DNA of 64,000 nt, taken from the NCBI GenBank assembly GCA_964538085.1, contig CAZIDF010000001.1, positions 96,826-160,825 of the forward strand, written 5' to 3'. Made by a program: the position numbers and the translations under genes. Position 1 is the first letter of the stretch, and each line of letters opens with the position of its first letter. This document shows, in pieces, positions 7,721 through 63,522 of the stretch. This DNA comes from an uncultured Eubacteriales bacterium. Its GTDB lineage: Bacteria; Acidobacteriota; Aminicenantia; Aminicenantales; Aminicenantaceae. The notes below the pieces were generated by a model that saw nothing but the letters and a program-made list of their open reading frames with translations, ran no database searches and was not told where the DNA came from.

Positions 7721-8574
7721 TGAAACAGAACCCAAAATTAAGCGATAAAAAAATCAAAGGGATCGTCAAGGAACGCTATTCACAAATTGCCAAGCATAAC
7801 TCCTCCTGTTGCGATCAAACAGAACGATACTGCGGACCGTCAAACATGGCGGAACACATTGGCAAAGTCATCGGATACAGTGAACTGGAACTCGGTTCAG
7901 TCCCAGAAAACGCCAATCTTGGACTCGGGTGTGGCAATCCTGTAGCTCTCGCCTCTCTTCAAAAAGGCGAAACGGTTCTGGATCTAGGCTCTGGCGCGGG
8001 TTTCGACTGCTTTCTCGCTGCCAAAAGAGTCGGCAAAAACGGGAAAGTGATTGGCGTGGACATGACGTTTGATATGGTAGAGAAAGCCAGAGAAAATGCT
8101 CAAAAAGGCCGGTATGAAAACGTGGAGTTCTTGTTGGGAGAGATCGAGAATATACCTTTGGAGCCGGAATCCGTGGATGTGATAATCTCCAATTGCGTGA
8201 TAAATCTTTCGCCGGACAAAAAAAAAGTTTTCCAGGAAACATTTAGAGTTCTCAAACCTGGAGGCAGATTAATGATTTCAGACTTGGTCCTGTTGAAGGA
8301 CCTGCCAGAATCTGTCAAAGAATCTGTCCAGGCTTACACTGGCTGTATCGCAGGTGCCATGAGAAAAGAAGAATACATAAAACTCATCCAGGACGCCGGT
8401 TTTCAGCATATCGATGTTCAAGGGGAAGAATTCTTCTCTCTCGGTTTGGAATCAGAAGATGCTATGGCAAAAGCTATCGTTGAGGAGACGAAGATCCCCC
8501 TTGAACAACTCAAAGAAATTGCCAGTTCTGTGGTGAGTATTAAGATAGGTGCGGCAAAACCGATGTGCGGATAA
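7720..8574 (+). CDS. arsM: arsenite S-adenosylmethionine methyltransferase
   Basis: SAM motif [11 protein letters not shown]. ArsM-conserved cysteines: N-terminal CC...[15 protein letters not shown] and YTGCIAGA. In-frame ATG at 7720, coupled to the upstream ORF. Confidence 0.8.
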
Positions 8575-8586
8575 GACCCCTTCCCC

Positions 8587-9837
8587 CTAGAACCGGAACA
8601 GGTTGTTACCCAGTTTTTTCTTCTCCTCGTTCCATCTTTTCACCAAATAGGGTTTTTCCTCTTCGAACACCCTGACGATCTTTTCAAAATATTCCTCGCA
8701 CTCCTTGATATCCATGTGAATGGTCTTATTCACGAAGGAGAGGATCCGGGAATGGTAAAACGGGATCATGGACTCTACGATCATTTGCTTCGGGATCTGG
8801 TTGTTACGGTAGGCAATGGCGAAATTGAACAGGATACGTGCCCAGAGATCGCTGCTGTAATAGAATTTTTCTTTGGGGATATTTTTTATTTTTTTGATTT
8901 CGGTAAATTCTTCATTGGGAAGGATATTTTTCCATACTTCCCCATACCGATCAAAACCTTGGACAAAACTAACGTAGAGGGCATCTGTATCCACAGAAAC
9001 TGGTGGAGGAGTCTCCATGGCTCCCAACCCGAATCCAAAAATGCTGCTCGGCCAGCTTTCTGATGTGTCTTTCCAGAAATATTCGAAGTCAATCATCAGC
9101 TCGAAAAAGGTCATGATCACCTGCTTGAACATCGGCCCCAGGTGTTTTGCCGGATCCTTGGCTCGATGAGATTTTGGGGAACCCAAGAAGGTTTGACAGA
9201 CCTTGAACCTGCGGGCGATGGCGACAGTGGTCATCCAGATATCGATCCCGAAATGAGCCACGTTTTCTGTCCAGGTTTTTTCGGACAGGAATGCTTGAGC
9301 CAGCCGTCTTGAAAAACCGAAATCTCCCCCGATGGGTTGTCTAACTCTAAGCCCGAAAAGGGTTCTCAAAAGCGGATAAGCGATGTGATTGGTGATGGAA
9401 CCATCGTATTTGTGGCGGATATAGATGGGAGTCACATAGTTGAAGCCTGCAAACAGGGGCTCCCCCAGGTATTGGATCCACTGGGGCGTTATGCTCTGAA
9501 GATCGGCATCCACGACAACGGCAGCTTTAGCCTCGAGCTCGACGACGGCCTCGAATAAATTCCTCAGGTTGTTCCCCTTTCCTCGAATATCCCCCGTTGT
9601 CGAAATGTAAATCTTGGGAACATCGGTGGGAGTGTTCAAAAAGGCTGTTTTTGTCCCATCCGGCGAATTGTTGTCAATATTGATGATAACGGATTTTTTA
9701 TCCGGAAAAAACTTGCACAATCCTTGACTGGCCATCTTGGTGGGATGAGAGATGGAATCAGCTTCATTAAAGGAAGGTATCCCCACGACAAAGTCGGCTT
9801 TTTTTACATGTTCAGGATTTTCGATAATCACATCCAT
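8587..9837 (-). CDS. GT-A fold glycosyltransferase, GT78-like (mannosylglycerate/glucosylglycerate synthase-like), paralog A
   Basis: VVGIPSFNE N-terminus and DADLQSITPQWI (DxD) motif. RQPIGGDFGFSRR and FGIDIWMTT blocks resemble those I recall from Rhodothermus mannosylglycerate synthase. Paralog at 41688..42926. Confidence 0.5.
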   Translation of the reverse strand: MDVIIENPEHVKKADFVVGIPSFNEADSISHPTKMASQGLCKFFPDKKSVIINIDNNSPDGTKTAFLNTPTDVPKIYISTTGDIRGKGNNLRNLFEAVVELEAKAAVVVDADLQSITPQWIQYLGEPLFAGFNYVTPIYIRHKYDGSITNHIAYPLLRTLFGLRVRQPIGGDFGFSRRLAQAFLSEKTWTENVAHFGIDIWMTTVAIARRFKVCQTFLGSPKSHRAKDPAKHLGPMFKQVIMTFFELMIDFEYFWKDTSESWPSSIFGFGLGAMETPPPVSVDTDALYVSFVQGFDRYGEVWKNILPNEEFTEIKKIKNIPKEKFYYSSDLWARILFNFAIAYRNNQIPKQMIVESMIPFYHSRILSFVNKTIHMDIKECEEYFEKIVRVFEEEKPYLVKRWNEEKKKLGNNLFRF

Positions 9838-30003: not shown

Positions 30004-30819
30004 ATGAAGGATCAAATTATCGTTTTCACTGACCTTGACGGTACGCTTGTTGATTACCACACTTATTCCTATGAACAAGCCCTCCCAGCGCTGGTTGAGT
30101 TAAAAAAAAATGACATTCCTCTGATCATCTGCTCGAGCAAAACCCGGGCAGAAATAGAAAAATTTCGTTCAAGGCTGGACAACGACCATCCGTTTATCTC
30201 TGAAAACGGCGGGGCCATTTTTGTTCCTCTGGACTATTATGACTTCGAGATTCCTTATACTCGAAAAGATTTGAAGTATTGGATAATCGAGTTTGGCACG
30301 CCCTACCACAAAATCAGGGGAACATTGCAGAAAATACAATCTGAATTCCCCGATAAGGTAAGGGGATTCGGTGATATATCTGCCCAGGAAGTGGCAAACT
30401 TATGCGAGATTCCTTCGGATGAAGGCGTTCTGGCAAAAGAACGAGAATACGATGAACCTTTTCTCCTCAAAGACAAAACAATACTGGATAAAATTCGAGA
30501 GTTAGCCAAAGAAGATCATCTCCAAATCATTCAAGGAGGTCGGTTTTATCATCTCATCGGGGAAAATGACAAGGGGAAGGCTGTCTCCTATTTGACGGAT
30601 ATTACCAGGAGAGCTTATGACGATATCAAAACCATCGGCCTCGGGGATAGCCAGAACGATTTGCCCATGCTTCAAGTCGTTGATTTTCCTGTATTGGTCA
30701 AAAAACCGGATGGAAGCCATGCCCCTGACATAAACCTGGATAATCTTATCCGTTCGCCAGGCAAAGGTCCTGTGGGTTGGAATTTTTCTGTAATGGAGCT
30801 CCTGGATAAGCTGGTATAG
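30004..30819 (+). CDS. HAD-IIB hydrolase, mannosyl-3-phosphoglycerate phosphatase (MpgP/YedP) family
   Basis: FTDLDGTL motif I, SSKT motif II, GDSQND motif IV. Length and cap match the MPGP family (TIGR01486-like). Confidence 0.65.
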   Translation: MKDQIIVFTDLDGTLVDYHTYSYEQALPALVELKKNDIPLIICSSKTRAEIEKFRSRLDNDHPFISENGGAIFVPLDYYDFEIPYTRKDLKYWIIEFGTPYHKIRGTLQKIQSEFPDKVRGFGDISAQEVANLCEIPSDEGVLAKEREYDEPFLLKDKTILDKIRELAKEDHLQIIQGGRFYHLIGENDKGKAVSYLTDITRRAYDDIKTIGLGDSQNDLPMLQVVDFPVLVKKPDGSHAPDINLDNLIRSPGKGPVGWNFSVMELLDKLV

Positions 30820-30959
30820 TTTCTCACAAGCTCCATAATACAAATATCAGCCCGTATCATTCGACGATCCTGTTGGCTATATCTTCAATGGTCGCTTCAA
30901 CCATCCCCAAAAATCCCATTTATCACATACGCGGAAAAGGAGAGACCCAGGCGAGGAAG

Positions 30960-31159
30960 GGAAGCATTTCCAAATCCGTGATAATTTTAATATGGTCAGG
31001 GAAGCTGAAGAGGAAGTCATCCGGAGGCGAGCGGGCATGGTTCCTCGTAGAGGAGAGCGAGCCGAGGAACTAAGCGGAATTTCCTCGCTGGGGAAATTCA
31101 GCGGGCTGACGTTTCAGCTTGCCTGACTGTTTCTTTATCACGGATTTGGAAATGCTTAC
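30960..31159. mobile_element. MITE-like element, copy 2 (200 bp) with imperfect 25-bp terminal inverted repeats (TIRs) and a 9-bp flanking direct repeat
   Basis: Left end GGAAGCATTTCCAAATCCGTGATAA (30960-30984). Right end TTATCACGGATTTGGAAATGCTTAC (31135-31159). Flanking direct repeat GCGAGGAAG at 30951-30959 and 31160-31168. Confidence 0.45.
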
Positions 31160-31233
31160 GCGAGGAAGAAAATAGCTGATTTTTATTCGCGATTAATATA
31201 TAATCCAGGGTTTAAGTATGCTGTAATTATGCC

Positions 31234-32511
31234 ATGACAAAAATAGTCACCATCATTCTGGCGGGTGGTCAAGGGAAGCGGCTCTTTCCTCTAACGAAAA
31301 TGCGCAGCAAACCAGCCGTCCCGATTGCCGGCCGATTTCGGCTGATCGACATTCCGATCAGCAACTGTATCCATTCAGGGCTGAGAAAAATCTTCATTCT
31401 CACTCAATACAGCAGCGAATCTCTCCATCGTCATATCTTCATCACTTATCGCTTCGACAGTTTCACAAAAGACTTCGTCACCATTCTCTCCGCCCAACAA
31501 ACCCTCGAGAGCCCTGATTGGTACCAAGGAACAGCCGATGCAGTCCGTCAAAACCTGCGTTTTTTCCGTACTGAGGGAGACCTGGTGCTGGTTCTTTCAG
31601 GGGATCACCTGTACCGGATGGATTATCAAAAATTCATAAAATTTCACCTGGATAAAAAAGCCGATGTTAGCATAGCTGTTTATCCTGTCTTTTCCAGTCA
31701 AGCTCCGGAATTCGGCGTGATGAAAGTGAACAACCAAAGCCGGATCGTAGCCTTCCTCGAAAAGCCTAAAGATCCCTCTCAAATAGAGAGCATGAAAGTC
31801 CCGGAAGAGGTCTTTCACCAATTCCAGATAGATGCTGCCGGACGGACACACCTCGCCTCGATGGGAGTGTATATTTTCAAATGGGAAGTCCTCAAGAATC
31901 TGCTGGAAAAGTCTATCCACGAAGATTTCGGCAGGGAGGTTATCCCCTCTTCCATAGAACAATACAACGTGCGCGGCTACTTTTTTAACGATTACTGGGA
32001 GGATATCGGAACGATTCGCAATTTTTACGATGTTCACATGGACCTGACCCAGCCCTTGCCTCGGTTTAATTTTTATGATGAACAAAAACCGATCTTCAGC
32101 CATGCCCGCTTTCTCCCGGGATCGAAAATCTTATCCTCCCTTGTCCAAAACTCCATATTGTGCGAGGGCAGCATTATCAACAACTCGAAAATAAGCCATG
32201 CCATCATCGGAATCCGCTCTCGCATCGGAAACGACTCCCTGATCGAGCGTTCTGTCCTTATGGGAGCCGACTTTTTTGAATCGAAAGAAGAACTCGATAG
32301 GAATCTTAAAAAAAATATTCCCCGAATGGGAATCGGAGACAACTGTGATATCCAAAACGCGATCGTCGATAAAAACGCACGCATCGGAAATGGAGTCAAA
32401 CTCGTCAATGCGAGGAGAATAAATGAGGAGACTCAAGAAATGTATGTGATAAGAGACGGAATCATCGTTATCCCGAAAAACGCCATCATTCCAGATGGGA
32501 CTGTCATTTGA
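31234..32511 (+). CDS. glgC: glucose-1-phosphate adenylyltransferase
   Basis: N-terminal ILAGGQGKRLFPLT...PAVPIAG signature. Left-handed beta-helix C-terminus. Confidence 0.9.
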   Translation: MTKIVTIILAGGQGKRLFPLTKMRSKPAVPIAGRFRLIDIPISNCIHSGLRKIFILTQYSSESLHRHIFITYRFDSFTKDFVTILSAQQTLESPDWYQGTADAVRQNLRFFRTEGDLVLVLSGDHLYRMDYQKFIKFHLDKKADVSIAVYPVFSSQAPEFGVMKVNNQSRIVAFLEKPKDPSQIESMKVPEEVFHQFQIDAAGRTHLASMGVYIFKWEVLKNLLEKSIHEDFGREVIPSSIEQYNVRGYFFNDYWEDIGTIRNFYDVHMDLTQPLPRFNFYDEQKPIFSHARFLPGSKILSSLVQNSILCEGSIINNSKISHAIIGIRSRIGNDSLIERSVLMGADFFESKEELDRNLKKNIPRMGIGDNCDIQNAIVDKNARIGNGVKLVNARRINEETQEMYVIRDGIIVIPKNAIIPDGTVI

Positions 32512-32528
32512 TTTTATAGGAGACACTC

Positions 32529-33554
32529 ATGCCTGAACTTCGTTATGATCCGCTAGAACATCGATGGGTGATCATCGCCACCGAAAGAGCAGCCAGGCCT
32601 TCCGATCTGGCTGATAAGACAAAATACAACCACGTCAAAGTCTGTCCCTTCTGTGAAGGTCACGAAACATCCACCCCCCCAGAGATATGGGCCTTCAGAG
32701 ATCCGAAAACAGCTCCCAACACACCGGGGTGGCAGGTCCGGGTCGTATCCAATAAATTTCCCGCTTTGAAAATCGAATCCGAAGGCAAAAGGATAGGAGT
32801 GGGTTATTACGACATGATCGAGGGAGCGGGTGCCCATGAAGTGATCATCGAAACCCCTCAGCATGACATTAGCCTGGCAGACCTCCCTCCTAGCCACATC
32901 AAGTGGGTCCTCCTCGCCTACCGGGAAAGGATAAAGGACCTGTATAAAGACCCGCGGTTCAGGTATGCGCTTGTTTTCAAAAATCACGGGCAAAGGGCTG
33001 GAGCCTCTCTTGCTCACCCCCATTCCCAATTGATCACAACACCGATCGTTCCGCGCAATGTATTCATGAAGCTAGATGTCGCAAAGAAACATTATGCGAC
33101 CAAGGAGAGATGTCTGATCTGTGATCTGATTCAACAGGAAATCAGCACAGGATCAAGAATAATCAGCCAGGATAACGGCTTCGTCGCTTTTGCTCCTTAC
33201 GCTTCCCGTTTCCCGTTCGAAGTGTTCATTGCACCGATAGAGCACAATCACAACTACGAAGACATTACCGATGACGACCTAGAGAGATTTTCCCATCTGC
33301 TCAAAGACATTCTTTCAAAGCTTAAAAGTGTGCTGAACGACCCGCCTTATAATTTTGTTCTCAACACATCCCCCAACACCAATGCCAAACCCAAGCTTCC
33401 GGATCAATGGGCAACCCTTAAGTACGATTATCACTGGCATATCGATATCATCCCCAGGCTCGTCCGCATCGCCGGATTCGAATGGGGAAGCGGATTCTAC
33501 ATCAATCCCAGTGTCCCGGAGGAAGCCGCCAAATATTTGCGAGAGGAAGGCTGA
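32529..33554 (+). CDS. GalT-like nucleotidyltransferase (HIT superfamily branch III; possible ADP-glucose phosphorylase / Gal-1-P uridylyltransferase)
   Basis: CPFCEGHE zinc site. HPHSQL His-Pro-His active-site motif. Lies 18 nt downstream of glgC. Confidence 0.7.
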   Translation: MPELRYDPLEHRWVIIATERAARPSDLADKTKYNHVKVCPFCEGHETSTPPEIWAFRDPKTAPNTPGWQVRVVSNKFPALKIESEGKRIGVGYYDMIEGAGAHEVIIETPQHDISLADLPPSHIKWVLLAYRERIKDLYKDPRFRYALVFKNHGQRAGASLAHPHSQLITTPIVPRNVFMKLDVAKKHYATKERCLICDLIQQEISTGSRIISQDNGFVAFAPYASRFPFEVFIAPIEHNHNYEDITDDDLERFSHLLKDILSKLKSVLNDPPYNFVLNTSPNTNAKPKLPDQWATLKYDYHWHIDIIPRLVRIAGFEWGSGFYINPSVPEEAAKYLREEG

Positions 33555-33558
33555 AAGC

Positions 33559-35058
33559 TCATTCAACACGGTCAGATAATTCTGTGAGTTCGGCAAATTT
33601 CCCGGCTTCATGGGAAAACAATTGATCTGGCAAAAGCCGCCACCGCCAGTTTCCTATTTTCGTCCCGGGCAGGTTCATCCTCGCTTCCTCCCCCAACCCC
33701 AAAAGATCCTGCATGGGAACGATAAAGGTATCGGCAGCGGACTTCATGCCCATTTCGATGAACTCCCGATGGACGTCTTGTTCCGTGATTCGATGCCCTA
33801 AATATCGAAACAACCTAGTCTTATCCTGCGTCTTGGCCTCCGTTGTGAACCACCCCTTTACGGTGTTGTTATCATGAGTCCCGGTATAAACCACACAATT
33901 TTTTTTAAAAGTATGGGGCAAATAAGGATGGTCTGGATTGTCATCGCCGAAAGCGAAAAGAAGAACCTTCATTCCGGGAAAGCCAAACCGTTCTCTGACT
34001 TCTTCCACATCCGGAGTGATCGTCCCGAGGTCTTCCGCCACGATGGGCAGAGTGGAAAATCTCTGGTTGAGTCGACCGAAGAAATCCATCGCCTCTGCTT
34101 TTACCCATGTTCCATTTACAGCCGTTGTCTCCCCGGAAGGGACTTCCCAATAGCCGACAAAACCCCTGAAGTGGTCTATCCTGACCACATCGAACAATTT
34201 TAAATTGCGTTCCAGTCTTTGTATCCACCAGCCGTAACCGGTTCGCTTCAATTCATCCCATCGGTAAAGAGGATTGCCCCAGAGTTGTCCGGTTTTGCTG
34301 AAATAATCAGGAGGGACACCAGCGACGACGAAGGGTTCCCTGTTTGGGCCGAGTTTGAACAACTCGGGATGGGCCCAAACGTCCACGCTATCATGAACGA
34401 CATAGATGGGGATATCTCCGAGGATCAAGACTCCCTTCCGGTTGCAGTAGTCTCTCAGTCTATTCCATTGCCTATAAAACACATGTTGAAGAAATTTCGC
34501 CTTTGCTATCTCCTCATGCAGTTCTGATCTCAAAATTCTCAAAGCACCTGATTCCCTGTCCCTAATACCGGAGGGCCACTCGCTCCAAACCTTATTTCGA
34601 AATCGGGATTTCAGGGCCGCAAACAGGGCGTGCTCTTCAAGCCAGAATGCATTTTCGGCACAAAATTTCTCGAAATCCTCCATTTCCCCGGTTTTTTTAA
34701 AGCGTTCATAAGCCACATCAAAATTCTTTTTTCTTGAGAGGATAATACCATCGAAATCGACCCGTTCTTCGGGAAAATCAGGAAGGGACTCTAAATCCTT
34801 GGGCATAAGCAACCCTTCTTGAATCAACAACTCCAGGCTTATGAGAAGCGGATTCGCAGCGAAGGCCGAATAACTGTGATAAGGGGAATTATCGAATACA
34901 GAGTCTGTGGGATTGACAGGAAGAATCTGCCAGTATTTCTGCTTCGCTGCAGCGAGAAAATCGGCAAAGGCATAGGAGGCAGGACCCAAATCCCCGATAC
35001 CATAAGGGGAGGCCAAAGATGTGATGTGAAGAAGAACACCGCTTCCTCTCTCTCTCAT
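33559..35058 (-). CDS. malQ: 4-alpha-glucanotransferase (amylomaltase, GH77)
   Basis: N-terminal GVLLHITSL...GIGDLG signature. GH77 catalytic blocks. Confidence 0.9.
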   Translation of the reverse strand: MRERGSGVLLHITSLASPYGIGDLGPASYAFADFLAAAKQKYWQILPVNPTDSVFDNSPYHSYSAFAANPLLISLELLIQEGLLMPKDLESLPDFPEERVDFDGIILSRKKNFDVAYERFKKTGEMEDFEKFCAENAFWLEEHALFAALKSRFRNKVWSEWPSGIRDRESGALRILRSELHEEIAKAKFLQHVFYRQWNRLRDYCNRKGVLILGDIPIYVVHDSVDVWAHPELFKLGPNREPFVVAGVPPDYFSKTGQLWGNPLYRWDELKRTGYGWWIQRLERNLKLFDVVRIDHFRGFVGYWEVPSGETTAVNGTWVKAEAMDFFGRLNQRFSTLPIVAEDLGTITPDVEEVRERFGFPGMKVLLFAFGDDNPDHPYLPHTFKKNCVVYTGTHDNNTVKGWFTTEAKTQDKTRLFRYLGHRITEQDVHREFIEMGMKSAADTFIVPMQDLLGLGEEARMNLPGTKIGNWRWRLLPDQLFSHEAGKFAELTELSDRVE

Positions 35059-35087: not shown

Positions 35088-37514
35088 TCACCAGCATTTC
35101 ACATGAAGCTGGCGACCGATATCTTTCATCAATTCAACCCAATCTTCAGCACGGGATTCTCCTTCATTTCTCCTTTTCCCCATTTCGTTTTTCAGTCGCT
35201 TGCAAAGGAGAAAATAAATATTCTGACTTTTCCAGAGATCGAGATCCAGCGGAAAATCTCTCAACAACAGGAGTAACGCATCTATTTTTTTGAGCAAAAT
35301 TACATTCTGTGGGTCGGCCTGAAGTTTGGCCATTATTTTGTTGAGTCTGAAGCTTGAAATATATCCCAAAAGAACCCGGTCAGGATGAAGATCCCACTTT
35401 TTAAATTCCTGAACTATTTTTTTTATTTTATCTAAATCTAATTCATCTCCCTCCATGGATTTCCGAAAGTCAGCATCCAAAATAAACTCTACAGAAGTCG
35501 CAAATGCTTTCGGAAGAGGAATATTGTTTTCTTTCAGAGCGGACATGATGGAATAATGGTTTTCAAAAACTTGGCGCAGGGATGCCTCCGCATCCGCCAA
35601 TGCGGTTTTCAGGATTCGATTCAGAATTTCTCTTTTTTTGTCTCTCAAAAGATGCCAGAGGGAATAATTGTGATCCCCGAAGTGAAGGTCCATCAACCGG
35701 ATGATTTGAAGAACATCCCCTGTTTGAAAGGCACTTCTTATCTCTTCCTGCATAGAGGAAAAAGTCCGTTCATCCGAAAACCGCCTTGCCCCTCCGACAA
35801 GGTTTTGATCTCCGTAATGCAGAACAGCATAACTGATCGTCTCCTCTTCCCAAGTGATCTCTGAGCGGATTTTGGCCTTTCCCAGCGCAAGCCTTTGCGA
35901 TGCGGTCTCCATGTGATCGACGAACTGGCTTTGGGCCGTATATTCCCCTATTCGAATGGTTTCGGGATAATCCTCGAACAAAGAAGACACGGCATAATGC
36001 ACGCCAATCCTTTGGGTGTCCAGAGGCGCCGGCTTAACGAGCTGTTCATAGACCTTGGCTCCATTCCCGAATGCCGCTTGATTGCTCGGAGCATTTTCGA
36101 TCCTTTTGATGTAGCCAGGTTCGAGATCCTTGCCGTCAATCTCTTTTGCGAGCTGAATGGCCCGCGCTGCATACTTCATCACTTGTACTGCTTCGATCCC
36201 CGAGATTTCATCGAAAAACCACCCGCAACTGGTGAACATGAGCAGGACATTCCGTTCCAACTCTAAAAGCTTGAGTATTTTTGTTTTTTCCTCATGGCTT
36301 GAGTCGCGTTTCAGGTGCCTGGAGAAATAGGCCTGGACATTCTCTTTCGAGCGATCTAAAACCACGCGTATGTAATCATCTCTTGCTTCCCAGGGATCTT
36401 TGAAAAAAATCGTCATTCCCTTTTCGTAAATGGGAGCGATTTGATCCCGGAGCCAATCCATGGCTTCCCGCAGCGCTCCCCGCCATTTTTGATTCCAATC
36501 CGGATGTTGACCCGTGTTGCATCCGCAATCGCTCCGCCATCTCTCCACTCCATGCACGCAGCTCCATGAGCTATTCTCAACGAATCCCACCTCGTATTCG
36601 GGAGGATACATCTCCAGATATTCGCCAAAAACGGTGAGGGAAGTTTTTCCGTCTGAATCGATTTTATCCAGGCAATAGGCAAGCGCCATTTCTCCAAAAC
36701 GGTGGTGATGCCCATAGGATTCCCCGTCGGTCGCGATATGGACCAACTGGATTTCTCCCTGTTCTGGAGAAAAGGCTTGCAGCAGCCTTCGAGAAAACAG
36801 TTCTCCGTTTTCCAGAAGGTCACCGAATGCGATGTCGTACGAAATGGCCCCATCATAGAAGAAAACGGCGATTTTTCCGCCAGACGGGAGCAAAACCCAA
36901 TAGGGCTTTTTCGGATCGACTTTCCCCCCATGGACATCGATCCAATCTTTCTGACCGATTTTTCGGACTCGAAGGGCCTGCTGTGGGGAAAGAATCGTGA
37001 AGCGAATCCCATGATGTGCCAAGATATTCAGGGTTTCACTATCAACGGCTGTTTCAGGAAGCCACATGCCTTCTGGCTCTCTTTTAAAGCGGTACTTGAA
37101 ATCTTGGATTCCCCATAATACTTGGGTGTGCTTGTCCCGGGAATAAGCGAGGGGCATGATCATGTGATTGTAAACCTGGGCAATGGCTGCCCCGTGACCT
37201 GAAAACCTATCCTGGCTCTGTTTGTCAGCCTCTAAAATTGCGAGGTAAATTTCCGGTTCTTGCTTTTCCAGCCAGGAGAACAGTGTCGGCCCGAAATTGA
37301 AACTTATCTTGGCATAGTTGTTCACGATCTTGACGATGTCTTTACCATCATCCAGAATCCTGGCCGCTGAGTTGGGGGCATAACATTCTCCTGAAATCCG
37401 TTCATTCCAATCGTGGAAGGGATGAGCAGAATCTTGGATTTCGACTTCGCCAAGCCATGGGTTTTCTCTAGGAGGCTGGTAAAAATGACCGTGAATACAA
37501 ATATAGGGCTTCAT
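35088..37514 (-). CDS. glycoside hydrolase family 57 protein with C-terminal DUF3536
   Basis: N-terminal HGHFYQPPRENPW signature. HxATDGESYGHHH catalytic region. About 300-aa C-terminal extension. Confidence 0.8.
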   Translation of the reverse strand: MKPYICIHGHFYQPPRENPWLGEVEIQDSAHPFHDWNERISGECYAPNSAARILDDGKDIVKIVNNYAKISFNFGPTLFSWLEKQEPEIYLAILEADKQSQDRFSGHGAAIAQVYNHMIMPLAYSRDKHTQVLWGIQDFKYRFKREPEGMWLPETAVDSETLNILAHHGIRFTILSPQQALRVRKIGQKDWIDVHGGKVDPKKPYWVLLPSGGKIAVFFYDGAISYDIAFGDLLENGELFSRRLLQAFSPEQGEIQLVHIATDGESYGHHHRFGEMALAYCLDKIDSDGKTSLTVFGEYLEMYPPEYEVGFVENSSWSCVHGVERWRSDCGCNTGQHPDWNQKWRGALREAMDWLRDQIAPIYEKGMTIFFKDPWEARDDYIRVVLDRSKENVQAYFSRHLKRDSSHEEKTKILKLLELERNVLLMFTSCGWFFDEISGIEAVQVMKYAARAIQLAKEIDGKDLEPGYIKRIENAPSNQAAFGNGAKVYEQLVKPAPLDTQRIGVHYAVSSLFEDYPETIRIGEYTAQSQFVDHMETASQRLALGKAKIRSEITWEEETISYAVLHYGDQNLVGGARRFSDERTFSSMQEEIRSAFQTGDVLQIIRLMDLHFGDHNYSLWHLLRDKKREILNRILKTALADAEASLRQVFENHYSIMSALKENNIPLPKAFATSVEFILDADFRKSMEGDELDLDKIKKIVQEFKKWDLHPDRVLLGYISSFRLNKIMAKLQADPQNVILLKKIDALLLLLRDFPLDLDLWKSQNIYFLLCKRLKNEMGKRRNEGESRAEDWVELMKDIGRQLHVKCW

Positions 37515-37548: not shown

Positions 37549-37773
37549 TTATTTATGTTGTTTTCCCTGCTCTCCCTCGGAAAGAGAGACAAAAGTCTTC
37601 GCTGCCTTGGTCTGGTACTCGATCTTATCTTCACGGGCCAACCAGCCCAGTCCTTGGTAGACGATCGACGATTTTTCATTCAACAGCTTAGGAAGTTGCG
37701 ATACGTTGACTTCTCCTTGCTTTTTTAAAATCTTCCAGATATTTCCTGCGGTAACACCGATATTTTCTTTCAT
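37549..37773 (-). CDS. small winged-helix domain protein
   Basis: 74-aa ORF with wHTH-like pattern (NVSQLPKLLNEKSSIVYQGLGWLAREDKI). Confidence 0.4.
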   Translation of the reverse strand: MKENIGVTAGNIWKILKKQGEVNVSQLPKLLNEKSSIVYQGLGWLAREDKIEYQTKAAKTFVSLSEGEQGKQHK

Positions 37774-37866
37774 TGAAATCTCCCTATTTTTTCGTGATGA
37801 ACCATACTGTGAACGTGCTTATTGTATCACACCTAAACGCCGACAAGATAGCGATTATTTAGGCCC

Positions 37867-38194
37867 CTCGGCATCTTTATTTCCGTGATAAATTTGGCTT
37901 TTGGGGATGGTTGAAGCGACCATTGAGGATTTAGCCTTCACGAGCCGCTCTTCGAGGGAATCTGACGAAGTCAGACGGTGAGGATGTATTGAGCACGACT
38001 ATTCTAAAGGATAAGAGATCCGGGCAAGCAGGGGAACAGAGGCTAGAGAGGTAGAGATTGGGAGTTAACGGGCGGAGTTCCGGAGCCGCCGAGAAGAGTG
38101 GTGAGGGAATGGCGTGAAAAATCTGCACGGGAGCAAAACCATTCCTAAAGGCCAATATAAAGCATTTTGATATCACGGAAATAAGGATGCTTCC
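37867..38194. mobile_element. MITE-like element, copy 1 (328 bp) with about 20-bp TIRs and a 9-bp flanking direct repeat
   Basis: Left GCATCTTTATTTCCGTGATA (37871-37890). Right TATCACGGAAATAAGGATGC (38171-38190), a 19/20 inverted match. Flanking TTTAGGCCC at 37858-37866 and 38195-38203. The TIR core is related to copy 2. Confidence 0.45.
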
Positions 38195-38214
38195 TTTAGG
38201 CCCTTGGCGTTTGT

Positions 38215-40137
38215 TCAATCCCTTTTGAAGATAAGCACGCTCAATGGAGGGACGGTGATGGATATCGAATGATCTCTGCCGTGCCGTGGAATAGGGTCGG
38301 ATTCCACACCGCCTAGATTGCCCTGGCCGCTTCCCCCATAATCCTTTGCATCGCTGTTCATCTCTTCTCGCCAGAATCCACTGGCTCGCACACCGATCCT
38401 GTATTTTGTATGAACGGAAGGAGTAAAATTGCAAACGACAAGGACTCCATTTTCCGCATCCTTCCCTTTTCGTGAGAAACACACGACACTCTTTTCCCAA
38501 TCGCTGAAGTCGATCCAATCGAACCCGCCCTGTTCGAAATCGTACTCGTAAAGCGCCGGCGTGATTCTGTAGAAATGATTGAGATCTCTGACCCACTTTT
38601 GCACTCCTTGATGGGGAGGGTATTTCAAAAGGTGCCAGTCCAAGCTCTCTTCGTGATTCCACTCTCCCCACTGGCCGAACTCCCCTCCCATAAACAACAG
38701 TTTCTTCCCTGGATGAGTGTACATAAAGCCAAACAAAAGCTTCAGACTGGCGAATTTCTGCCAGTCATCCCCAGGCATTTTGCTCAAGAGAGAGCTCTTT
38801 CCATGAACAACTTCATCATGAGAGAGGGGAAGGACAAAATTCTCGGAGAACGCATACCAGATGCTGAAGGTCAACTGGTTATGGTGATGTTTGCGATACA
38901 CCGGATCTCTGGACATATATTCCAGGATGTCGTGCATCCAGCCCATATTCCACTTCATGCCGAAGCCTAGACCGCCCAAATAAGGAGGGCGAGTCACCAT
39001 CGGCCAAGCTGTGGATTCCTCGGCTACTGTTTGAATATCCGGGAACATCCGATAAGCCGCTTCATTCAACTTTTTCAGAAAAGAGATCGCTTCGATGTTC
39101 TCTCGGCCTCCGTACTTATTCGGGATCCACTCTCCTTCCTTTCTCGAATAGTCCAAATAGAGCATGGAGGCAACAGCATCCATCCGTAGCCCGTCGATAT
39201 GATATTTATCCAGCCAGAAGATCGCGCTGCTTATCAGGAAATTCTGCACTTCATTCCGGCCATAATTGAAGATATAACTTTTCCAATCGGGATGGAAACC
39301 CTTCTTAGGATCCTCATGTTCGTAGAGGTGGGTTCCATCGAGAAACACCAATCCGTGCTCATCTGACGGGAAATGGGAGGGAACCCAATCCAGGATCACG
39401 CCGATGCCATTCTGGTGTAATTGATCGATCATATACATAAAATCCTGGGGTGTGCCGTACCGGCTTGTCGGGGCGAAATACCCGACTGTCTGATAACCCC
39501 AGGAACCATAAAAAGGATGCTCCGTAACCGGAAGCAGTTCCACATGGGTGAATCCCATTTCTTTCACATAATCCACAAGAAGGTAGGCAATTTCACGATA
39601 ATTCAGGAATGGGTTGTTCTCCGAGGGATCTCTTCGCCATGAACCCAAATGAACCTCATATACAGCATGAGGAGCTTGAAGGTCATTTTGTTTTTGTCTG
39701 TTCGCCATCCATTCCTCATCCTGCCACGGGTACTCCAAATCGCAGATGACAGTTGCTGTTCGGGGAGATAATTCCCAAAAATAGCCGCATGGATCGCCTT
39801 TGTCCACCTTGTACTTGCGGGATTTTGATTCGATATGGAACTTGTAGAGAGAGCCGATTCCGATATCGGGAATAAATCCTTCCCAGATTCCCGATCCATC
39901 CCATCTGACCGCCAAAGGATGCGAATCAGGTTTCCATCCGTTGAAATCTCCGACAACGGAAACGTATTTGGCATTGGGGGCCCAGAGCGCAAAGTGAAAC
40001 CCTCTCTTTTCTTCAACAGTCAAAGAATGCGCCCCCATCTTCTCGTAGAGTTTGAAGAAATTCCCTTCTTTAAAAAGGTGTATATCATATTCGCTGAGCA
40101 GAGTCGGGCCATGGATGACATTTTTTTTATTCGACAC
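38215..40137 (-). CDS. glgB: 1,4-alpha-glucan branching enzyme (GH13)
   Basis: GH13 catalytic blocks (GFRMDAV..., EESTAWP). CBM48-like N-terminus. Confidence 0.9.
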
Positions 40138-40196: not shown

Positions 40197-41657
40197 TTAG
40201 ACCTTAGACAAGGCTTTTTTATAGACTTCCTCGAATTTATGAGCAGACTTTTGCCAGGAGAAATCTTGCTTCATCGCATTTTTAACGAGTTTTGCCCACA
40301 ATCGCTTATTTCTGTATAAATAGACAGCCCTTTTTACCGCTTTTACCAATTCTTTGGAGGAATAGGCATTGAATTTAAACCCAGTTCCTTTTCCTGTTTC
40401 GGGATCGAACTCTTTGATTGTATCGTCCAATCCTCCTGTTGCCCTGACGATTGGGATGGTGCCATACTTGAGGCTGTACATCTGGTTCAACCCGCAGGGT
40501 TCGTATTTGGATGGCATGAGGAACATGTCAGAACCGGCTTCGATTTTGTGGGCGAGGGCATTATCGAAAGCGATCTTCACACCAAGATGGCCCGGATTTT
40601 TCTTCGCCAATGCGGCGAACTGTTTCTCATATTTCGAATCGCCGGTTCCCAAAATGACCAAACAAAGGTTCAATTCCAAGAGTTGGTCCATCGCTTCGGC
40701 CAAAATGTCGAAACCTTTCTGATCCGCCAATCTTGAAATTATTCCGATAATGGGGAATTCATCCGATCCCTTCAATCCATAAATTTGTTTCAGTTCGTCC
40801 TTACAATTTTTCTTTCCCGATGTGTCTTTTTCATCGAAGTTAGAGGCGATGTGGGGATCGTTCACCGGATTCCACAGTGAATAGTCCACACCGTTCAAGA
40901 TCCCGTACAAGTCTTCACGTCTGTTTTTAAGCACACCCTCCATCCCATATCCATATTCAGAGGTTTGGATCTCCTGTGCGTACTTCACGCTCACCGTGGT
41001 GATGGAGTCGGAAAATACGATCCCGCCTTTCATGAAGTTCATCTTCCCATAGTATTCCAGGCCACCTATAGAAAACAATTCCATCGGCAATTCGCTTATC
41101 GACATGGTTTCCTTCGGAAATACACCCTGATAAGCGAGGTTATGGATGGTGAACACCGACCGCATATTCTTGAAATAGGGATCCTTTTTGTACAGGCTTT
41201 TCAAATACACCGGGACAAGACTCGTTTGCCAATCATGACAGTGGATCACATTCGGTTCGAATCCGATCGACCGGCTCAATTCCACTATACTACGGCTGAA
41301 AAAAATAAATCTCTCAGGATTATCGAAATAGTCCCCTTCGGACGTGCCATACAGATTGGTGCGGTCAAAATACTCATCGCGCTGGATAAAGTAGACAGGG
41401 ACACCTCCCGACATCGTGGTTGTGTAAACCCGTGCGGTCATTTGTTGTCCCTTAAAAGGCAGGGTAAGGAATTGATCATGCGGTTTTAAATCATGGTCTC
41501 CTTCTTTTACAGATCTGTACAGGGGCATGACCACGGCCACGTGATGGCCCAACGCTGCAAGAGCAGCGGGCAAAGATCCGGAAACATCGGCCAATCCACC
41601 GGTCTTGGCAAAAGGAGCGACTTCTGAGGAAGCGAACAGGATCCTTAAATCACTCAT
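40197..41657 (-). CDS. glgA: glycogen synthase (GT5)
   Basis: N-terminal SEVAPFAKTGGLADV (KTGGL) motif. Length 486 aa. Confidence 0.9.
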   Translation of the reverse strand: MSDLRILFASSEVAPFAKTGGLADVSGSLPAALAALGHHVAVVMPLYRSVKEGDHDLKPHDQFLTLPFKGQQMTARVYTTTMSGGVPVYFIQRDEYFDRTNLYGTSEGDYFDNPERFIFFSRSIVELSRSIGFEPNVIHCHDWQTSLVPVYLKSLYKKDPYFKNMRSVFTIHNLAYQGVFPKETMSISELPMELFSIGGLEYYGKMNFMKGGIVFSDSITTVSVKYAQEIQTSEYGYGMEGVLKNRREDLYGILNGVDYSLWNPVNDPHIASNFDEKDTSGKKNCKDELKQIYGLKGSDEFPIIGIISRLADQKGFDILAEAMDQLLELNLCLVILGTGDSKYEKQFAALAKKNPGHLGVKIAFDNALAHKIEAGSDMFLMPSKYEPCGLNQMYSLKYGTIPIVRATGGLDDTIKEFDPETGKGTGFKFNAYSSKELVKAVKRAVYLYRNKRLWAKLVKNAMKQDFSWQKSAHKFEEVYKKALSKV

Positions 41658-41687: not shown

Positions 41688-42926
41688 TCAATCCCAGATC
41701 TTCAATAGGTAGGGTTTCAAGGTCTCGAAAGTCTGGGCTTGCTCCTCGATGATTATCTCAGCATCCTGGGTCGTCATGTCCTTGGTCCGATTGATGAATG
41801 ATGCGACACGGGCATAATATAACGGGCGCATGATGTCCACAAGATTTTTTCTGTCTTTTTTCCATCGGTGGAATGTCACAGCAAAATCGTAGACGATTTT
41901 CGTCCAATCTTCGGTGGGCATGAGAAAATTTTCGATTTTTCTCTTTTTCGTCAATCCCTTGAGAATGACGAAGCTTTGGGGATTGATGATCTTTTCCCAG
42001 AGAACGGAGAGGTTTTTAAATCCTTCGTTAAAGTTTTCTATCATTCCCGGTAAATCAACAGAGAATGCTTCGGGCTCTTTCTGGATGGACTCGCCATACG
42101 TCGGGATCAGTTCGCTCGTCGTTACTCCCTTCCACTTCTCTGAATTACTTTCCATCAACTCGAAAATGGGATAAACCACCTGCCTGAACATCGGCCCCAA
42201 GTTTTCTAAAGGATCTTTGACATCGTGAATTTTTGTGCCCAGGTATGCCTGGCATATGGATTTGTCCGAAACGATCGCCGAAGTCGTCATCCAGATGTCT
42301 ATGCCAAACCTAGCGATATCGGTCATCCAGATTTCAGGCCCACAGGAATAATAAAAATCGACCATCTTTTCAGAAAGGCCGAAATCGCCCCCTATAGGCT
42401 GACGGACTCTTTTGCCATAAAGAGCCCGTGTCATGTTATAGGCGATATTGTTGGTAATGGTAGCGTCGTATTTGTAACGGGAATAAACGGGCGCGACAAA
42501 ATCATGGCCATGGGATAACACAGGATCAGCAAGGGCTTTCACCCATTCCGGTGTGATGCTGCGGAGGTCTGCGTCGAACAACAAACAGACTTTGGCTTTT
42601 AAAAATGAGGCGGCTTCAAAAATCATCCGCAAAGCACTTCCTTTGCCGGGAATCCCCCTATAGATGGTGACGATTTTTTCGACATAGGGATGAACCACTT
42701 TCTCCTTAGCTGCCTCTCTTGTATCGTCCGTGGATCCCCCATCTGAGATGATGATGACAGTCCGTAAATCCTTGTAATGCCGGGAGATCCCCTCGCTCAC
42801 GGTATCGACAACATATTCGATGGTGGAATCATTGTTGAAGCAGGGAATTCCCACCACCAAGTCCGCTCGATCCATCTTTTCGAAACGCCTGTTGGCCCAA
42901 GGTCTCATCGCTGTGTGGAATTTCAT
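41688..42926 (-). CDS. GT-A fold glycosyltransferase, GT78-like (mannosylglycerate/glucosylglycerate synthase-like), paralog B
   Basis: VVGIPCFNN and FDADLRSITPEWV (DxD) motifs. RQPIGGDFGLSEK and FGIDIWMTT blocks. Immediately upstream of glgA. Start set at MKFHTAM (42926). Confidence 0.5.
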   Translation of the reverse strand: MKFHTAMRPWANRRFEKMDRADLVVGIPCFNNDSTIEYVVDTVSEGISRHYKDLRTVIIISDGGSTDDTREAAKEKVVHPYVEKIVTIYRGIPGKGSALRMIFEAASFLKAKVCLLFDADLRSITPEWVKALADPVLSHGHDFVAPVYSRYKYDATITNNIAYNMTRALYGKRVRQPIGGDFGLSEKMVDFYYSCGPEIWMTDIARFGIDIWMTTSAIVSDKSICQAYLGTKIHDVKDPLENLGPMFRQVVYPIFELMESNSEKWKGVTTSELIPTYGESIQKEPEAFSVDLPGMIENFNEGFKNLSVLWEKIINPQSFVILKGLTKKRKIENFLMPTEDWTKIVYDFAVTFHRWKKDRKNLVDIMRPLYYARVASFINRTKDMTTQDAEIIIEEQAQTFETLKPYLLKIWD

Positions 42927-60072: not shown

Positions 60073-62082
60073 CTATTTCACGATATCGTCATTCAGGTAA
60101 CGATTCCAGACGTTTTCAAACCAGGTGTCCTCCCGGGGAATGGGATGGATATCAACCCACTGCTTTGAAACGTTGCCTCCCGAGTCCAGTGAAACCTCCA
60201 ATATTTTATTATTCACGAAGGCATCTTGATCGTTCAGGAGAAATTTCCATCGATCGCCCAGTTCATCACAAGGAACGTCTCCATCAGGATTCCAAACGAG
60301 ATAGGACCCGCGGCTCTGTCCTCCCCTTTCCAAATACTCTCCGATCGCTTCAAGATAGAGAACGTGAGTCAAACATAAATCCATAATCTTGAACGCCTCC
60401 GGCAGTGTTTTGGCGGACGTAATGCTTATGTCCTTATGAAGATTAGCATACAAATCCCACGCTTGGGCCTTGGCCTCGATAATTTTTTGTGGATCTCTGA
60501 TGTGAGCCCCCACGGCCGTCATTCTCTCTTGAATCTGATTCCTCGAATCTTGAACGAAGCTATCATTCGCCAATCGAGAATCGACGACACTTTCAGCAAA
60601 AGCCAGTTTATCGGCAATTTGATCTCGAACCATATCGCGGAATTCCTTATCCTGAGGCGGGGCGTCCACGTAACGTTTGGCAACAAACAATGCCGCGCGC
60701 AGGCTCCCCACTTGCCCGGAATTCAACGCCGATCCACCTGGCCTGTAAACGCCATGGGTACCGTTTACTTCACCCACAGGGAAAAGGTGTTTGATATTGC
60801 TTTCCCACCAGATATTTCCCTTCAGCCCGCCGTTGTTATGCTGCACACAGACAGCAATCTCCAGGGGCTGCTTCGCTATATCGATCCCATGGTTTTTGTA
60901 AAGATCGATGGCGGGTTGATTCATTTTTTTGAGTCTTTCGATCGGTGTCCCGATTAATGCGCCGGATTTTCGGAGATATTCATATGCTTCCTTACCCAAA
61001 CATTCAAAACAAAAATCTTCCAGGATTCCTCCCCCGCCGGGATTCCGGGTAAAATCCAGAAACACCCTCCTCCCATAGATGACCGTCTCCTGGTAAACAA
61101 GAATGTCGATCAAGGAAGAACCATATTCCTGTACTTTCCGCGGATCGAAGGGCCACTGATAACCTTTGAGGAATATGGCAGTAGCCAGTTTTCCCATGTC
61201 GGGGAAATAATCGTTCAAGAATTCCCGATCATCCATGCCCTCTAAGTCGGTAGATACATAACGGGGGATAACCTGCTGATAGGTTCCGGACAGATTCCAT
61301 CGAAACTTGATCGATGCCAATCCGAACTGGGATTCGGTCAGGTTATTCCCTATGGCCCCGATCGCAAAAGCCAGTCCATGGGATCCAACTTGGCTCTCAG
61401 GATAAACGGACGTTTTGTAGATTCCGGCCGGCCCTCCCGTGGCCAACACCACATTGACCGCATTGAAGACCACAAAGCCATAATTTTTTTTATCGACCTG
61501 GCCCCTGTCGATGGCCATAGCACCGACCACCCTTTTTTCTGGCCCCTCCTTTGAGGACAAAAGCGCGACGATCTCGTGCCGGTCGAAAACAGCGATCCCC
61601 TTTTCTTGGACTTCTTTTGAAAGGGATTCGACCATCAGGCGCGAAGTCAGGGGTCCGGCTGAGGTGGCTCTTCCCCGGGGATCGTGGTCAGTTTTATATC
61701 CCACATACCCCCCATATTTATCGTGTGGAAAAGGAACACCCAAGCCGACAAGATTAAAAAAGGCTTGGGTCGAGTTCATGGCTTCACAAAGAGCGATGTC
61801 CCCATTCATGCATCCGCCATTGTATAGATCCTGTGCCATTTCCATAGGAGAATCGGGAGAATCACTGGAAACCGAGAGTTTGTAATAGGTTTGTTTATCC
61901 GATCCGGCGTTGTACGAGGTCCCGCCTCTCCAGAGATCCGTGGCGATAGCGATGTTTTTCTGGCCAAATTTGTACAGGCTTAAAGCTGCATTCAACGCGG
62001 CCGCTCCGCTCCCGATGATAAGAGTGTTGAGCGAGTATAGGGGAATTTTTTTGCCCTGGACCTCGATCGTACTTCTTTTCAT
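60073..62082 (-). CDS. FAD_binding_2 family flavoprotein oxidoreductase (fumarate reductase/succinate dehydrogenase flavoprotein-like)
   Basis: N-terminal IIGSGAAALNAAL dinucleotide-binding motif. HNNGGL motif near the C-terminal third. 669 aa. Confidence 0.65.
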   Translation of the reverse strand: MKRSTIEVQGKKIPLYSLNTLIIGSGAAALNAALSLYKFGQKNIAIATDLWRGGTSYNAGSDKQTYYKLSVSSDSPDSPMEMAQDLYNGGCMNGDIALCEAMNSTQAFFNLVGLGVPFPHDKYGGYVGYKTDHDPRGRATSAGPLTSRLMVESLSKEVQEKGIAVFDRHEIVALLSSKEGPEKRVVGAMAIDRGQVDKKNYGFVVFNAVNVVLATGGPAGIYKTSVYPESQVGSHGLAFAIGAIGNNLTESQFGLASIKFRWNLSGTYQQVIPRYVSTDLEGMDDREFLNDYFPDMGKLATAIFLKGYQWPFDPRKVQEYGSSLIDILVYQETVIYGRRVFLDFTRNPGGGGILEDFCFECLGKEAYEYLRKSGALIGTPIERLKKMNQPAIDLYKNHGIDIAKQPLEIAVCVQHNNGGLKGNIWWESNIKHLFPVGEVNGTHGVYRPGGSALNSGQVGSLRAALFVAKRYVDAPPQDKEFRDMVRDQIADKLAFAESVVDSRLANDSFVQDSRNQIQERMTAVGAHIRDPQKIIEAKAQAWDLYANLHKDISITSAKTLPEAFKIMDLCLTHVLYLEAIGEYLERGGQSRGSYLVWNPDGDVPCDELGDRWKFLLNDQDAFVNNKILEVSLDSGGNVSKQWVDIHPIPREDTWFENVWNRYLNDDIVK

Positions 62083-63425
62083 TTTTTTATCCTCTCCCGC
62101 AGAAGGCTTTTGTATCCCTTGCCGTATATTTCCTTATCCTTCATAACACATCCGGTAATTCCCCCCATCCGCATCATTTCGCTGCAGCGGGAACAAGAGA
62201 TGCAGACTTTTTTGGGATTCAATTTCCCCTTTTCCATCAGATCCAGAGGTGCCTCGGGATAAGCGAAGGCCCCTCTTCCTATCCCGATGAAGCTGGCCAT
62301 CTCATTTTTTAGAACCGCTGCTCCCACATTCGGGAAAAATTGTCTCAACCAGGAATAGCCAGTACCTATAACCGGGATCTCTGGGAATTCTTTTTGTATC
62401 TCGTTCGTGATGGATAAGAGCCTAGAAACTCCTTCCAACGGATGTTCTGGAGGAATCTGAGCTCCAGGAAGAGGGAGGTCGAAGGGCCTGGTCATGTGGG
62501 GGGAAAAATAAGGAATTCCTGCCGTCATATTGAAAAGTGAGCATCCCTCATCTATCAAAGAAGAGATAACTTGTTTCGGCTCTGTTAGATCGATACTCGC
62601 CGCTTCATTCCTCGCGCTGCCAAAACCATAAGGGAAGGGAATCCCGTCATAGGCACTCAAACGCACGGCAATGCCGATTTGGGGAACCTCTTGGCGTATT
62701 TTTTTTACGACCTCTGTGATAAAACGAATTCTGTTGCTAAAAGATCCTCCATACTTGCTGTTTTGCCGTTCGTGTGCAGATAAAAGCTCATTAATGACAT
62801 AGCCGTGGCAGGCTTTTATGTCCACAGCGTCAAAACCGGCTCGATATGCAAGAGAAGCGGCTTGGATAAAATTTTCCTGCAAACTATCCAGTTCTTCGTC
62901 GCTGAGAATGCGGAGGTTTTCTCTTTTTTCATCGAGGAAGGGATTGGTTATGGCAACTTGGGGCTGTGGCTTTCCTCGAGGCTTGCTGTACCGGCCCGAA
63001 TGGGTCAATTGAAGCACACAATAGACGTCCCGATCGGCACCGAAGGACCGGATGGCCTCTTTGCGCGTTTCTGTAACCAGCTTTGTGAATCCATCCACAT
63101 TGGCTTTATGAAGCCACAATTGGCGGGGATTGGATCGGCCATCCGGAACCACGCTTGTCGCCTCGAACCAGATCAAAGCGCTTCCACCGCGGGCAAAACG
63201 CCCATAACGTCGAAAGGTCAATTCGCTGGGAGATCCATCCGCGTCAGCATCATATCCTTCCATAGGTTGCACAGCCAAACGGTTGGCTATCTTTTTCGGA
63301 CCCAAAAAAATCTCTTCGAACAAAGGGCTCAAATCTGTTTGAAAAGGGAGTTCGATCCCCAAATCAGAGGCCTTTTTGAGCAATTTTTCACTCGATCGAA
63401 AGGCAAACATCTCATGTTGGGACAT
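62079..63425 (-). CDS. Old Yellow Enzyme-like NADH:flavin oxidoreductase with C-terminal Cys cluster
   Basis: OYE TIM-barrel blocks (QLTHSGR, DAVDIKACHGYVINELLS). C-terminal CISCSRC...GC motif. The stop overlaps the downstream flavoprotein start. Confidence 0.7.
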   Translation of the reverse strand: MSQHEMFAFRSSEKLLKKASDLGIELPFQTDLSPLFEEIFLGPKKIANRLAVQPMEGYDADADGSPSELTFRRYGRFARGGSALIWFEATSVVPDGRSNPRQLWLHKANVDGFTKLVTETRKEAIRSFGADRDVYCVLQLTHSGRYSKPRGKPQPQVAITNPFLDEKRENLRILSDEELDSLQENFIQAASLAYRAGFDAVDIKACHGYVINELLSAHERQNSKYGGSFSNRIRFITEVVKKIRQEVPQIGIAVRLSAYDGIPFPYGFGSARNEAASIDLTEPKQVISSLIDEGCSLFNMTAGIPYFSPHMTRPFDLPLPGAQIPPEHPLEGVSRLLSITNEIQKEFPEIPVIGTGYSWLRQFFPNVGAAVLKNEMASFIGIGRGAFAYPEAPLDLMEKGKLNPKKVCISCSRCSEMMRMGGITGCVMKDKEIYGKGYKSLLRERIKK

Positions 63426-63522
63426 GGTTACTATAGTGTATCTAAATTAAGTTGGCTTGACCAGAGTTGTTTGCTGTGGTAATAGCTAGACAAGTATCCC
63501 ATTTCATCTAAAGTATCGGCCG

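Follow-up and report, generated by a model that had tools for sequence, protein, structure and literature searches.

We found that a 200-bp segment upstream of glgC, in the glycogen locus of an uncultured Aminicenantes bacterium, is almost certainly a non-coding, non-autonomous DNA transposon (MITE) that inserted recently, and that it belongs to a MITE family which is widespread and multi-copy in Aminicenantes genomes. The window, by which we mean the whole stretch of 64,000 nucleotides that was analysed, carries this segment (element 1) together with a second MITE of 328 bp (element 2) and the truncated end of another copy (element 3). A non-autonomous transposable element had already been proposed in the first-pass annotation, and the proposal is borne out here by terminal inverted repeats (TIRs), target-site duplications of a fixed 9 bp, dispersed copies and empty sites in relatives.

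The glycogen cluster in which the elements lie was confirmed by Pfam assignments, with the following gene map.

30004-30819, + strand, HAD-type hydrolase (Pfam)
31234-32511, + strand, GlgC (Pfam)
32529-33554, + strand, GalT-like protein (Pfam)
33559-35058, - strand, MalQ (Pfam)
35088-37514, - strand, GH57/DUF3536 protein (Pfam)
37549-37773, - strand, DUF2582 protein (Pfam)
38215-40137, - strand, GlgB (Pfam)
40197-41657, - strand, GlgA (Pfam)

Element 1 is situated between the hydrolase gene and glgC, and element 2 in the gap that separates the 3' end of glgB from the DUF2582 gene start, so the gene map agrees with the earlier statement that both copies are intergenic in the glycogen locus. The closest named GlgC homologues come from Aminicenantes MAGs. 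Amid these Aminicenantes-labelled relatives, one GlgC (protein P0019, 80% identical to that of the window) bears the NCBI label Candidatus Heimdallarchaeota, which is probably a binning or labelling error. Elsewhere in the window, an 83-nt direct repeat with 72% identity (9094-9176 and 42153-42235), accompanied by shorter matches nearby (9221-9243 and 42277-42299), probably reflects paralogous genes.

The elements and their parts were delimited as follows.

30868-30950, - strand, element 3, the truncated and decayed end of an element-2-type copy, abutting element 1 (85% reverse-complement match of 30868-30926 to 37885-37943)
30951-30959, no strand, left 9-bp target-site duplication of element 1, GCGAGGAAG (a single TCGAGGAAG or TTGAGAAAG in relatives)
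30960-31159, + strand, element 1, a 200-bp MITE of the core-carrying 200-bp subfamily (TIRs, target-site duplication, identical copy in locus L158)
30960-30983, + strand, left TIR of element 1, GGAAGCATTTCCAAATCCGTGATA (inverted-repeat search, family logo)
30999-31125, + strand, conserved structured core of element 1, an outer stem around two hairpins with invariant AGCGGGCAYGG, GGAGAGCGA and CTCGCTGGGG (covariance model, 121 bits, E = 4e-30)
31136-31159, - strand, right TIR of element 1, reverse complement GTAAGCATTTCCAAATCCGTGATA (inverted-repeat search)
31160-31168, no strand, right 9-bp target-site duplication of element 1, GCGAGGAAG (homology of relatives restarts at 31161/31162)
31161-31233, + strand, glgC upstream region, the target's own DNA outside the element, with TATAAT at 31199-31204 (alignment with relatives)
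37858-37866, no strand, left 9-bp target-site duplication of element 2, TTTAGGCCC (direct-repeat comparison)
37867-38194, - strand, element 2, a 328-bp MITE of a second subfamily with TIRs CTCGGCATCTTTATTTCCGTGATA and, as reverse complement, GGAAGCATCCTTATTTCCGTGATA (TIRs, target-site duplication, BLAST)
38195-38203, no strand, right 9-bp target-site duplication of element 2, TTTAGGCCC (direct-repeat comparison)

The anatomy of element 1 largely matched its first description. The 25-nt arms (30960-30984 and 31135-31159) differ, as had been reported, by a single mismatch, which falls at element position 2 (left arm GGAAG..., right arm GTAAG...), while the 23 nt at 30962-30984 and 31135-31157 are 100% complementary. 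This 23-mer arm was found at no other site of the window and in none of 100 shuffles. The 9-bp direct repeat that had been noted at both ends, GCGAGGAAG, directly abuts the two TIRs (30951-30959 and 31160-31168). By itself the 9-mer is not rare (three copies in the window compared with 0.69 expected; 5 of 100 shuffles reach three), and what gives the repeat weight is that it sits exactly at either end of the element and that 9 bp is the rule throughout the family. The interior had been described as 200 bp long and devoid of a credible ORF; the second part of this statement held, since the ORFs overlapping the element encode only 44-66 aa (two of them run across the element boundary), whereas 200 bp is the length of the whole element and the G+C-rich interior measures 150 bp. 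Consistent with the internal hairpins that had been remarked on, element 1 folds into a long hairpin (+ strand, -103.5 kcal/mol, z = -10.7; - strand, -82.5 kcal/mol).

The second copy with a related TIR, already recognised at 37867-38194, was also confirmed; its duplication had been overlooked, as had element 3 next to element 1. Its TIR arms (37871-37890 and 38171-38190) are 95% complementary and of the same type as those of element 1, and its duplication TTTAGGCCC is a perfect 9 bp. The interiors of the two elements are unrelated, so that the TIRs alone are common to both. When element 2 was compared by BLAST with the set of family loci, 79 matches were obtained, the best being near-full-length copies with 72-88% identity. 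Element 3 matches the subterminal part of element 2 and continues into a decayed terminus that ends at the element 1 duplication; the module at 30866-30926 was present in 33 loci (82-94% identity), and alignment showed that element 3 is absent from the glgC loci of relatives. A fourth TIR-like site (8178-8201, a 24-mer with four mismatches) was discarded as a chance match inside a methyltransferase-like ORF.

Empty sites, which the first-pass annotation had suggested seeking in related strains, were found in four relatives: locus L106, with a GlgC 92% identical to that of the window, and loci L107, L108 and L109, with a GlgC 89% identical. Each holds one copy of the target (TTGAGAAAG or TCGAGGAAG) and lacks element 1; the insertion point reads GGTTGAGAAAGAAAATAGC in L107, L108 and L109 and GGTCGAGGAAGAAAACAGC in L106. 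In the three loci with the 89% identical GlgC, the gene order is the same as in the window, and the spacer between the hydrolase gene and glgC is 143 nt long compared with 414 nt in the window. BLAST homology of all four loci to the window starts at 31161/31162, the first bases past element 1. L106 carries element 2 at the corresponding position (its contig stops within the element), and L107 and L108 lack it. Judged by this distribution, element 2 is an older insertion than element 1, and such an age fits its more diverged TIRs (five mismatches).

A further locus, L158, overlaps the window at 60967-64000 with 99.9% identity and thus comes from the same genome. A copy that matches element 1 at 200 of 200 positions lies at L158:2067-2266, about 6.6 kb past the window end and about 39.5 kb away from element 1; CAGGGCTTC, which differs from the element 1 duplication, flanks it on both sides. 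The identity of two copies with different duplications indicates that the transposition of element 1 was recent. Altogether, about 71 kb of the source genome hold elements 1 and 2, the element 3 remnant and the identical copy in L158.

We further examined the distribution of the family using the TIR pattern GGAAGCATYYYYAWWTCCGTGATA, for which about 0.3 chance matches were estimated from information content in a genome collection of 596 Gb. The pattern matched 101 reference-genome loci, mostly on contigs labelled Aminicenantes; the remaining loci lie in binned MAGs deposited under the labels Eubacteriales, Nitrospirota, Thermodesulfobacteriota or Actinomycetota, and for several of these MAGs the label is, as for P0019, probably a binning or labelling error. 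A variant of the pattern with G or T at position 2 matched at least 120 metagenome loci and gave zero matches in viral contigs. Hence, the further copies that had been anticipated do exist, whereas the parent IS anticipated with them did not appear in the loci searched. Among the matches listed, single MAGs contained 8-11 loci. Many TIR matches are located at contig ends, as expected of repeats that break assemblies, and short-read contigs of the same strain break inside element 1, at 31130 and 30981. Family elements adjoin unrelated genes at more than 200 other loci, where the flanking duplications differ. Their sizes range from 66 to 489 bp, with main classes near 200, 169 and 325-338 bp, and no coding capacity was seen in the family elements examined.

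The locus set contained 145 inverted TIR pairs no more than 500 bp apart, and the flanking 9-bp repeat was exact in 53 of them, matched at 8/9 positions in 31 and at 7/9 in 17 (101 of 145 pairs at 7/9 or better). When the assumed duplication length was varied from 4 to 12 bp, 54 pairs were exact at 9 bp compared with 0-4 at every other length, including only 2 of 145 at 8 bp. The 54 exact duplications comprise 51 different 9-mers, in which a weak nTTnnnAAn symmetry shows as a richness in T at positions 2-3 and in A at 7-8. The possibility raised earlier that the flanking 9-mers might be coincidental is therefore set aside, since their length is fixed while their sequence differs from copy to copy. 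The family TIR logo reads G(G/T)AAGCAT-7 nt-TCCGTGAT. Across 72 TIR ends whose sequence the search pattern had not imposed (53% starting with GT and 40% with GG), positions 1, 3-9 and 16-23 are conserved and conservation collapses after position 24, which points to a bipartite TIR of about 24 bp, the conservation being partly built in because copies were collected through the TIR pattern.

About half of the subfamilies, including that of element 1, have in common a core of about 130 nt whose stems differ between subfamilies; element 2 and the 169-bp subfamily do not carry it. Its invariant or nearly invariant blocks are AGCGGGCAYGG(TTCC), (G)GAGAGCGA and the hairpin loop CTCGCTGGGG, and RNAalifold predicted an outer stem and two hairpins. 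The conserved core is not explained by the transposon model alone, as a plain MITE needs none. It is conceivable, if on balance improbable, that the core is a structured RNA or single-stranded DNA module under selection, serving as a propagation aid or a mobile regulatory RNA; such a role would add to the MITE reading. In its favour, AGCGGGCAYGG, GGAGAGCGA and the CUCGCUGGGG loop recur in subfamilies with differing stems. In a 17-sequence alignment with 28 predicted pairs, covariation exceeded that of shuffles and of slid partners: 92.8% of cells were paired (78% in shuffles; 38-53% with slid partners), 15 of 28 pairs had compensatory changes (11; 5-8), and the covariation score was 0.44 (0.17; 0.04-0.08). 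In divergent members, both sides of hairpin P2, which is invariant elsewhere, are changed (UUCCUC/GAGGAG to CACAUC/GAUGUG). These figures are tempered by the relatedness of the copies by descent, owing to which the cell counts and the Wilcoxon and binomial p-values overstate independence, and DNA-level processes can also keep palindromic arms alike.

A covariance model built from the core alignment and run on the window and on 1.4 Mb of loci gave a single window match (30999-31125, 121 bits), with no second match in element 2, and 58 strong matches in the loci. TIRs were present on both sides of 43 of these matches, on one side of 11 and on neither side of 4 (decayed or nested copies), so the core belongs to the transposon family as one of its modules and does not constitute a gene of its own. 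The core was not detected outside the family in the viral contigs scanned. Rfam 15 gave no match in the window at the gathering score, and a search of 30800-31300 at E up to 10 returned only two noise matches of about 10 bits, which speaks against a described RNA. An earlier suggestion of a structured small RNA thus survives in part, as a conserved, covarying core does exist, but this belongs to the element family and not to the glycogen locus.

Other features of the core point in both directions. Within the 200-bp subfamily it is the best-conserved segment (mean column identity 0.976, compared with 0.91-0.95 for TIRs and arms), and its strands are asymmetric, with more G-U than A-C cells among the predicted pairs (58 and 28) and a mean fold of -104 kcal/mol for sense compared with -93 kcal/mol for antisense. 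Against a function, the orientation of the core to flanking genes is not significantly biased (12 sense and 7 antisense in tandem contexts), and several subfamilies, including that of element 2, transpose without it. Moreover, three orthologous inserted copies show 0.947 identity compared with 0.95-0.98 in their flanks, with substitutions also within the "invariant" blocks; drift at about the flanking rate means that selection in situ is not evident. Two single copies bear on the same question. In the core at L062:2031-2166 the hairpin loop is inverted (CCAGCGA for UCGCUGG) above an unchanged stem, which looks like a DNA-level inversion within the palindrome and as such counts against a function. 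A 200-bp-type copy at L039:6781-6906, by contrast, has largely decayed TIRs (about 9 of 24 positions mismatched in the left one) while its core still scores 111 bits, which counts for one. In our reading, any constraint on the core acts on copies that are still able to propagate and not on each insertion. That the core is an undescribed functional nucleic-acid structure riding on the Aminicenantes MITE family seems to us unlikely; if it were functional, candidate roles would include that of an RNA or single-stranded DNA module for element propagation and that of a mobile regulatory RNA or ribozyme at hundreds of promoter-proximal sites.

The first-pass annotation had also considered that the two copies might form a shared cis-regulatory looping module, or represent a non-coding RNA gene, of the glycogen locus that would be conserved in syntenic glg loci. 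The intergenic position of both copies within the glg cluster, and of element 1 just upstream of the conserved glgC leader, would suit such a role. It is refuted by the syntenic glg loci of relatives that lack element 1 (L107 and L108 also lack element 2) and by the many copies beside unrelated genes with other duplications; the unrelated interiors of the two window copies and the want of an Rfam match weigh in the same direction, and we give this explanation practically no credence. Other kinds of repeat fare no better. REPINs and derivatives of IS200/IS605 are known to have neither target duplications nor TIRs, and an IS200/IS605-type hairpin is recognised by a Y1 transposase. The long hairpin fold of element 1 resembles REPINs and PATEs, but a REP/REPIN moved by a RAYT or an IS200/IS605 palindrome-associated element is extremely improbable given the TIRs and the strict 9-bp duplication of variable sequence, in keeping with the single 9-mer in the empty sites, and the equally improbable chance palindrome is ruled out by the shuffles and by more than 200 further copies.

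Under the MITE reading, a parent element should supply the transposase, and we searched for it in the collected loci. The 230 loci, with 1.56 Mb of flanking DNA, yielded no autonomous parent; the collections consist mostly of short-read MAGs, where IS copies are often missing. TIR pairs more than 500 bp apart (500-6000 bp examined) included none with a duplication, the ORFs beside solo TIRs are ordinary cellular genes by appearance with no transposase among them, and clustering of the 1,232 ORFs of the loci yielded no recurrent transposase. A regular-expression search for IS66-type motifs came back empty, no TnpA, TnpB or TnpC was found between family ends in any locus, and the viral contigs scanned contained no parent. 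Two candidates were rejected: a 1,699-bp TIR pair in L037 lacks a duplication, and the gene between its ends is an ordinary membrane-dipeptidase-like one, and a 1,488-bp case in L041 (2676-4163) is a family MITE (flanks GCGCCATCC and TGGCCATCC, 7/9) split by an unrelated IS630-like element, which is bounded by the TIRs ATACGCATAAATAATGGATAT and encodes a two-ORF transposase on the - strand. As the parent was not found, we only infer mobilisation in trans and the transposase family.

Duplications of 9 bp are made by the IS903 group of IS5, IS10 and IS50 of IS4, IS256, IS1 and ISLre2, all of them candidate parent families. The TIR sequence provides a lead, and a lead only, to IS66 as a possible parent family. 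ISPsk01, an IS66-family element, has 24-bp TIRs with the outer bases GTAAGCGTCC (PMC12888890), compared with GTAAGCATCC here, and 9 of 10 outer positions match. However, the IS66-family member ISDge4 makes an 8-bp duplication (PMC12898284), whereas the Aminicenantes family strictly makes 9 bp and about 40% of its ends start with GG. Because of this difference in duplication length, the elements were not filed under IS66.

Several known MITEs resemble the family in architecture. In Neisseria, the Correia elements (NEMIS) form an abundant class of intergenic MITEs, 100-160 bp long, with TIRs of about 26 bp; they fold into RNA hairpins, can alter the expression of neighbouring genes and duplicate TA. 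The Aminicenantes family differs in its 9-bp duplication and shows no sequence similarity to them, nor did we see evidence for promoters or RNase III processing in it. MITEAba12 of Acinetobacter is likewise non-coding and multi-copy with 9-bp duplications, which are intact in only 40% of copies (PMC6382973), a proportion close to the 37% that are exact in the Aminicenantes family. MITEAba12 is 113 bp long and AT-rich, with 16-bp TIRs that match those of a co-resident parent, ISAba12, and its transposition was observed experimentally (PMC6382973); in contrast, the Aminicenantes family has no parent found, an unrelated TIR sequence and an interior that is G+C-rich and structured. According to a review, QMITE2 of Coxiella burnetii has 7-9 bp direct repeats, TIRs of 23-29 bp, a non-coding core of 113-145 bp and a very stable predicted hairpin transcript (PMC10969869). 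Element 1 is similar in its 9-bp repeat, 24-bp TIRs, 150-bp interior and fold of -103.5 kcal/mol, but there is no sequence relationship, the host phylum is another and the Aminicenantes duplication is strictly 9 bp. The Aminicenantes family is also distinguished by its modularity, in that many subfamilies of 66-489 bp share TIRs only and about half have a covariation-supported core. No paper on MITEs in Aminicenantes was found in the literature searched, and the family thus appears to be undescribed.

A mechanism consistent with these observations would involve a transposase, probably a DDE-type one, whose gene lies elsewhere and which recognises bipartite TIRs of about 24 bp, G(G/T)AAGCAT-N7-TCCGTGAT. 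This enzyme would join the element ends to a target cut with a 9-bp stagger, and repair of the stagger would leave the flanking 9-bp duplication. Element 1 entered GCGAGGAAG recently, 75 bp upstream of the glgC start codon and beside an older truncated copy of a related subfamily, and element 2, a member of a sister subfamily, is the older insertion and separates glgB from the DUF2582 gene.

The DNA next to the insertion is itself conserved. The last 73 nt before the glgC start (31161-31233) show almost no variation among relatives whose GlgC is 89-92% identical, and the stretch, with its TATAAT, is probably the glgC promoter and leader. A consensus promoter scan made no call in it, promoter and terminator scans nowhere exceeded shuffles, and no Shine-Dalgarno-like GGAGG is visible ahead of the glgC start codon. 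Element 1 sits at the exact distal edge of this conserved stretch, which it left intact, and may influence glgC expression from there. Farther upstream, L106 has a 402-aa ORF without a Pfam match (150-1358) in the place of the HAD-type hydrolase (window 30004-30819), and the gene order to the left of the insertion site therefore varies among close relatives.

Together, these findings account for two unusual segments between genes of the glycogen locus as transposon insertions, which call for annotation as mobile elements and not as regulatory sites or RNA genes. Since element 1 is recent and borders the conserved region ahead of glgC, it may affect the expression of glycogen genes in this strain only. 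The family implies a transposase that makes 9-bp duplications, fragments short-read assemblies where contigs break at the element, and can be used as a strain marker. Only the covarying core is out of the ordinary; if functional, it would exemplify a structured nucleic-acid module that owes its spread to a DNA transposon. More broadly, Aminicenantes, which are uncultured and known from metagenomes only, emerge as hosts of an active, abundant and modular MITE family.
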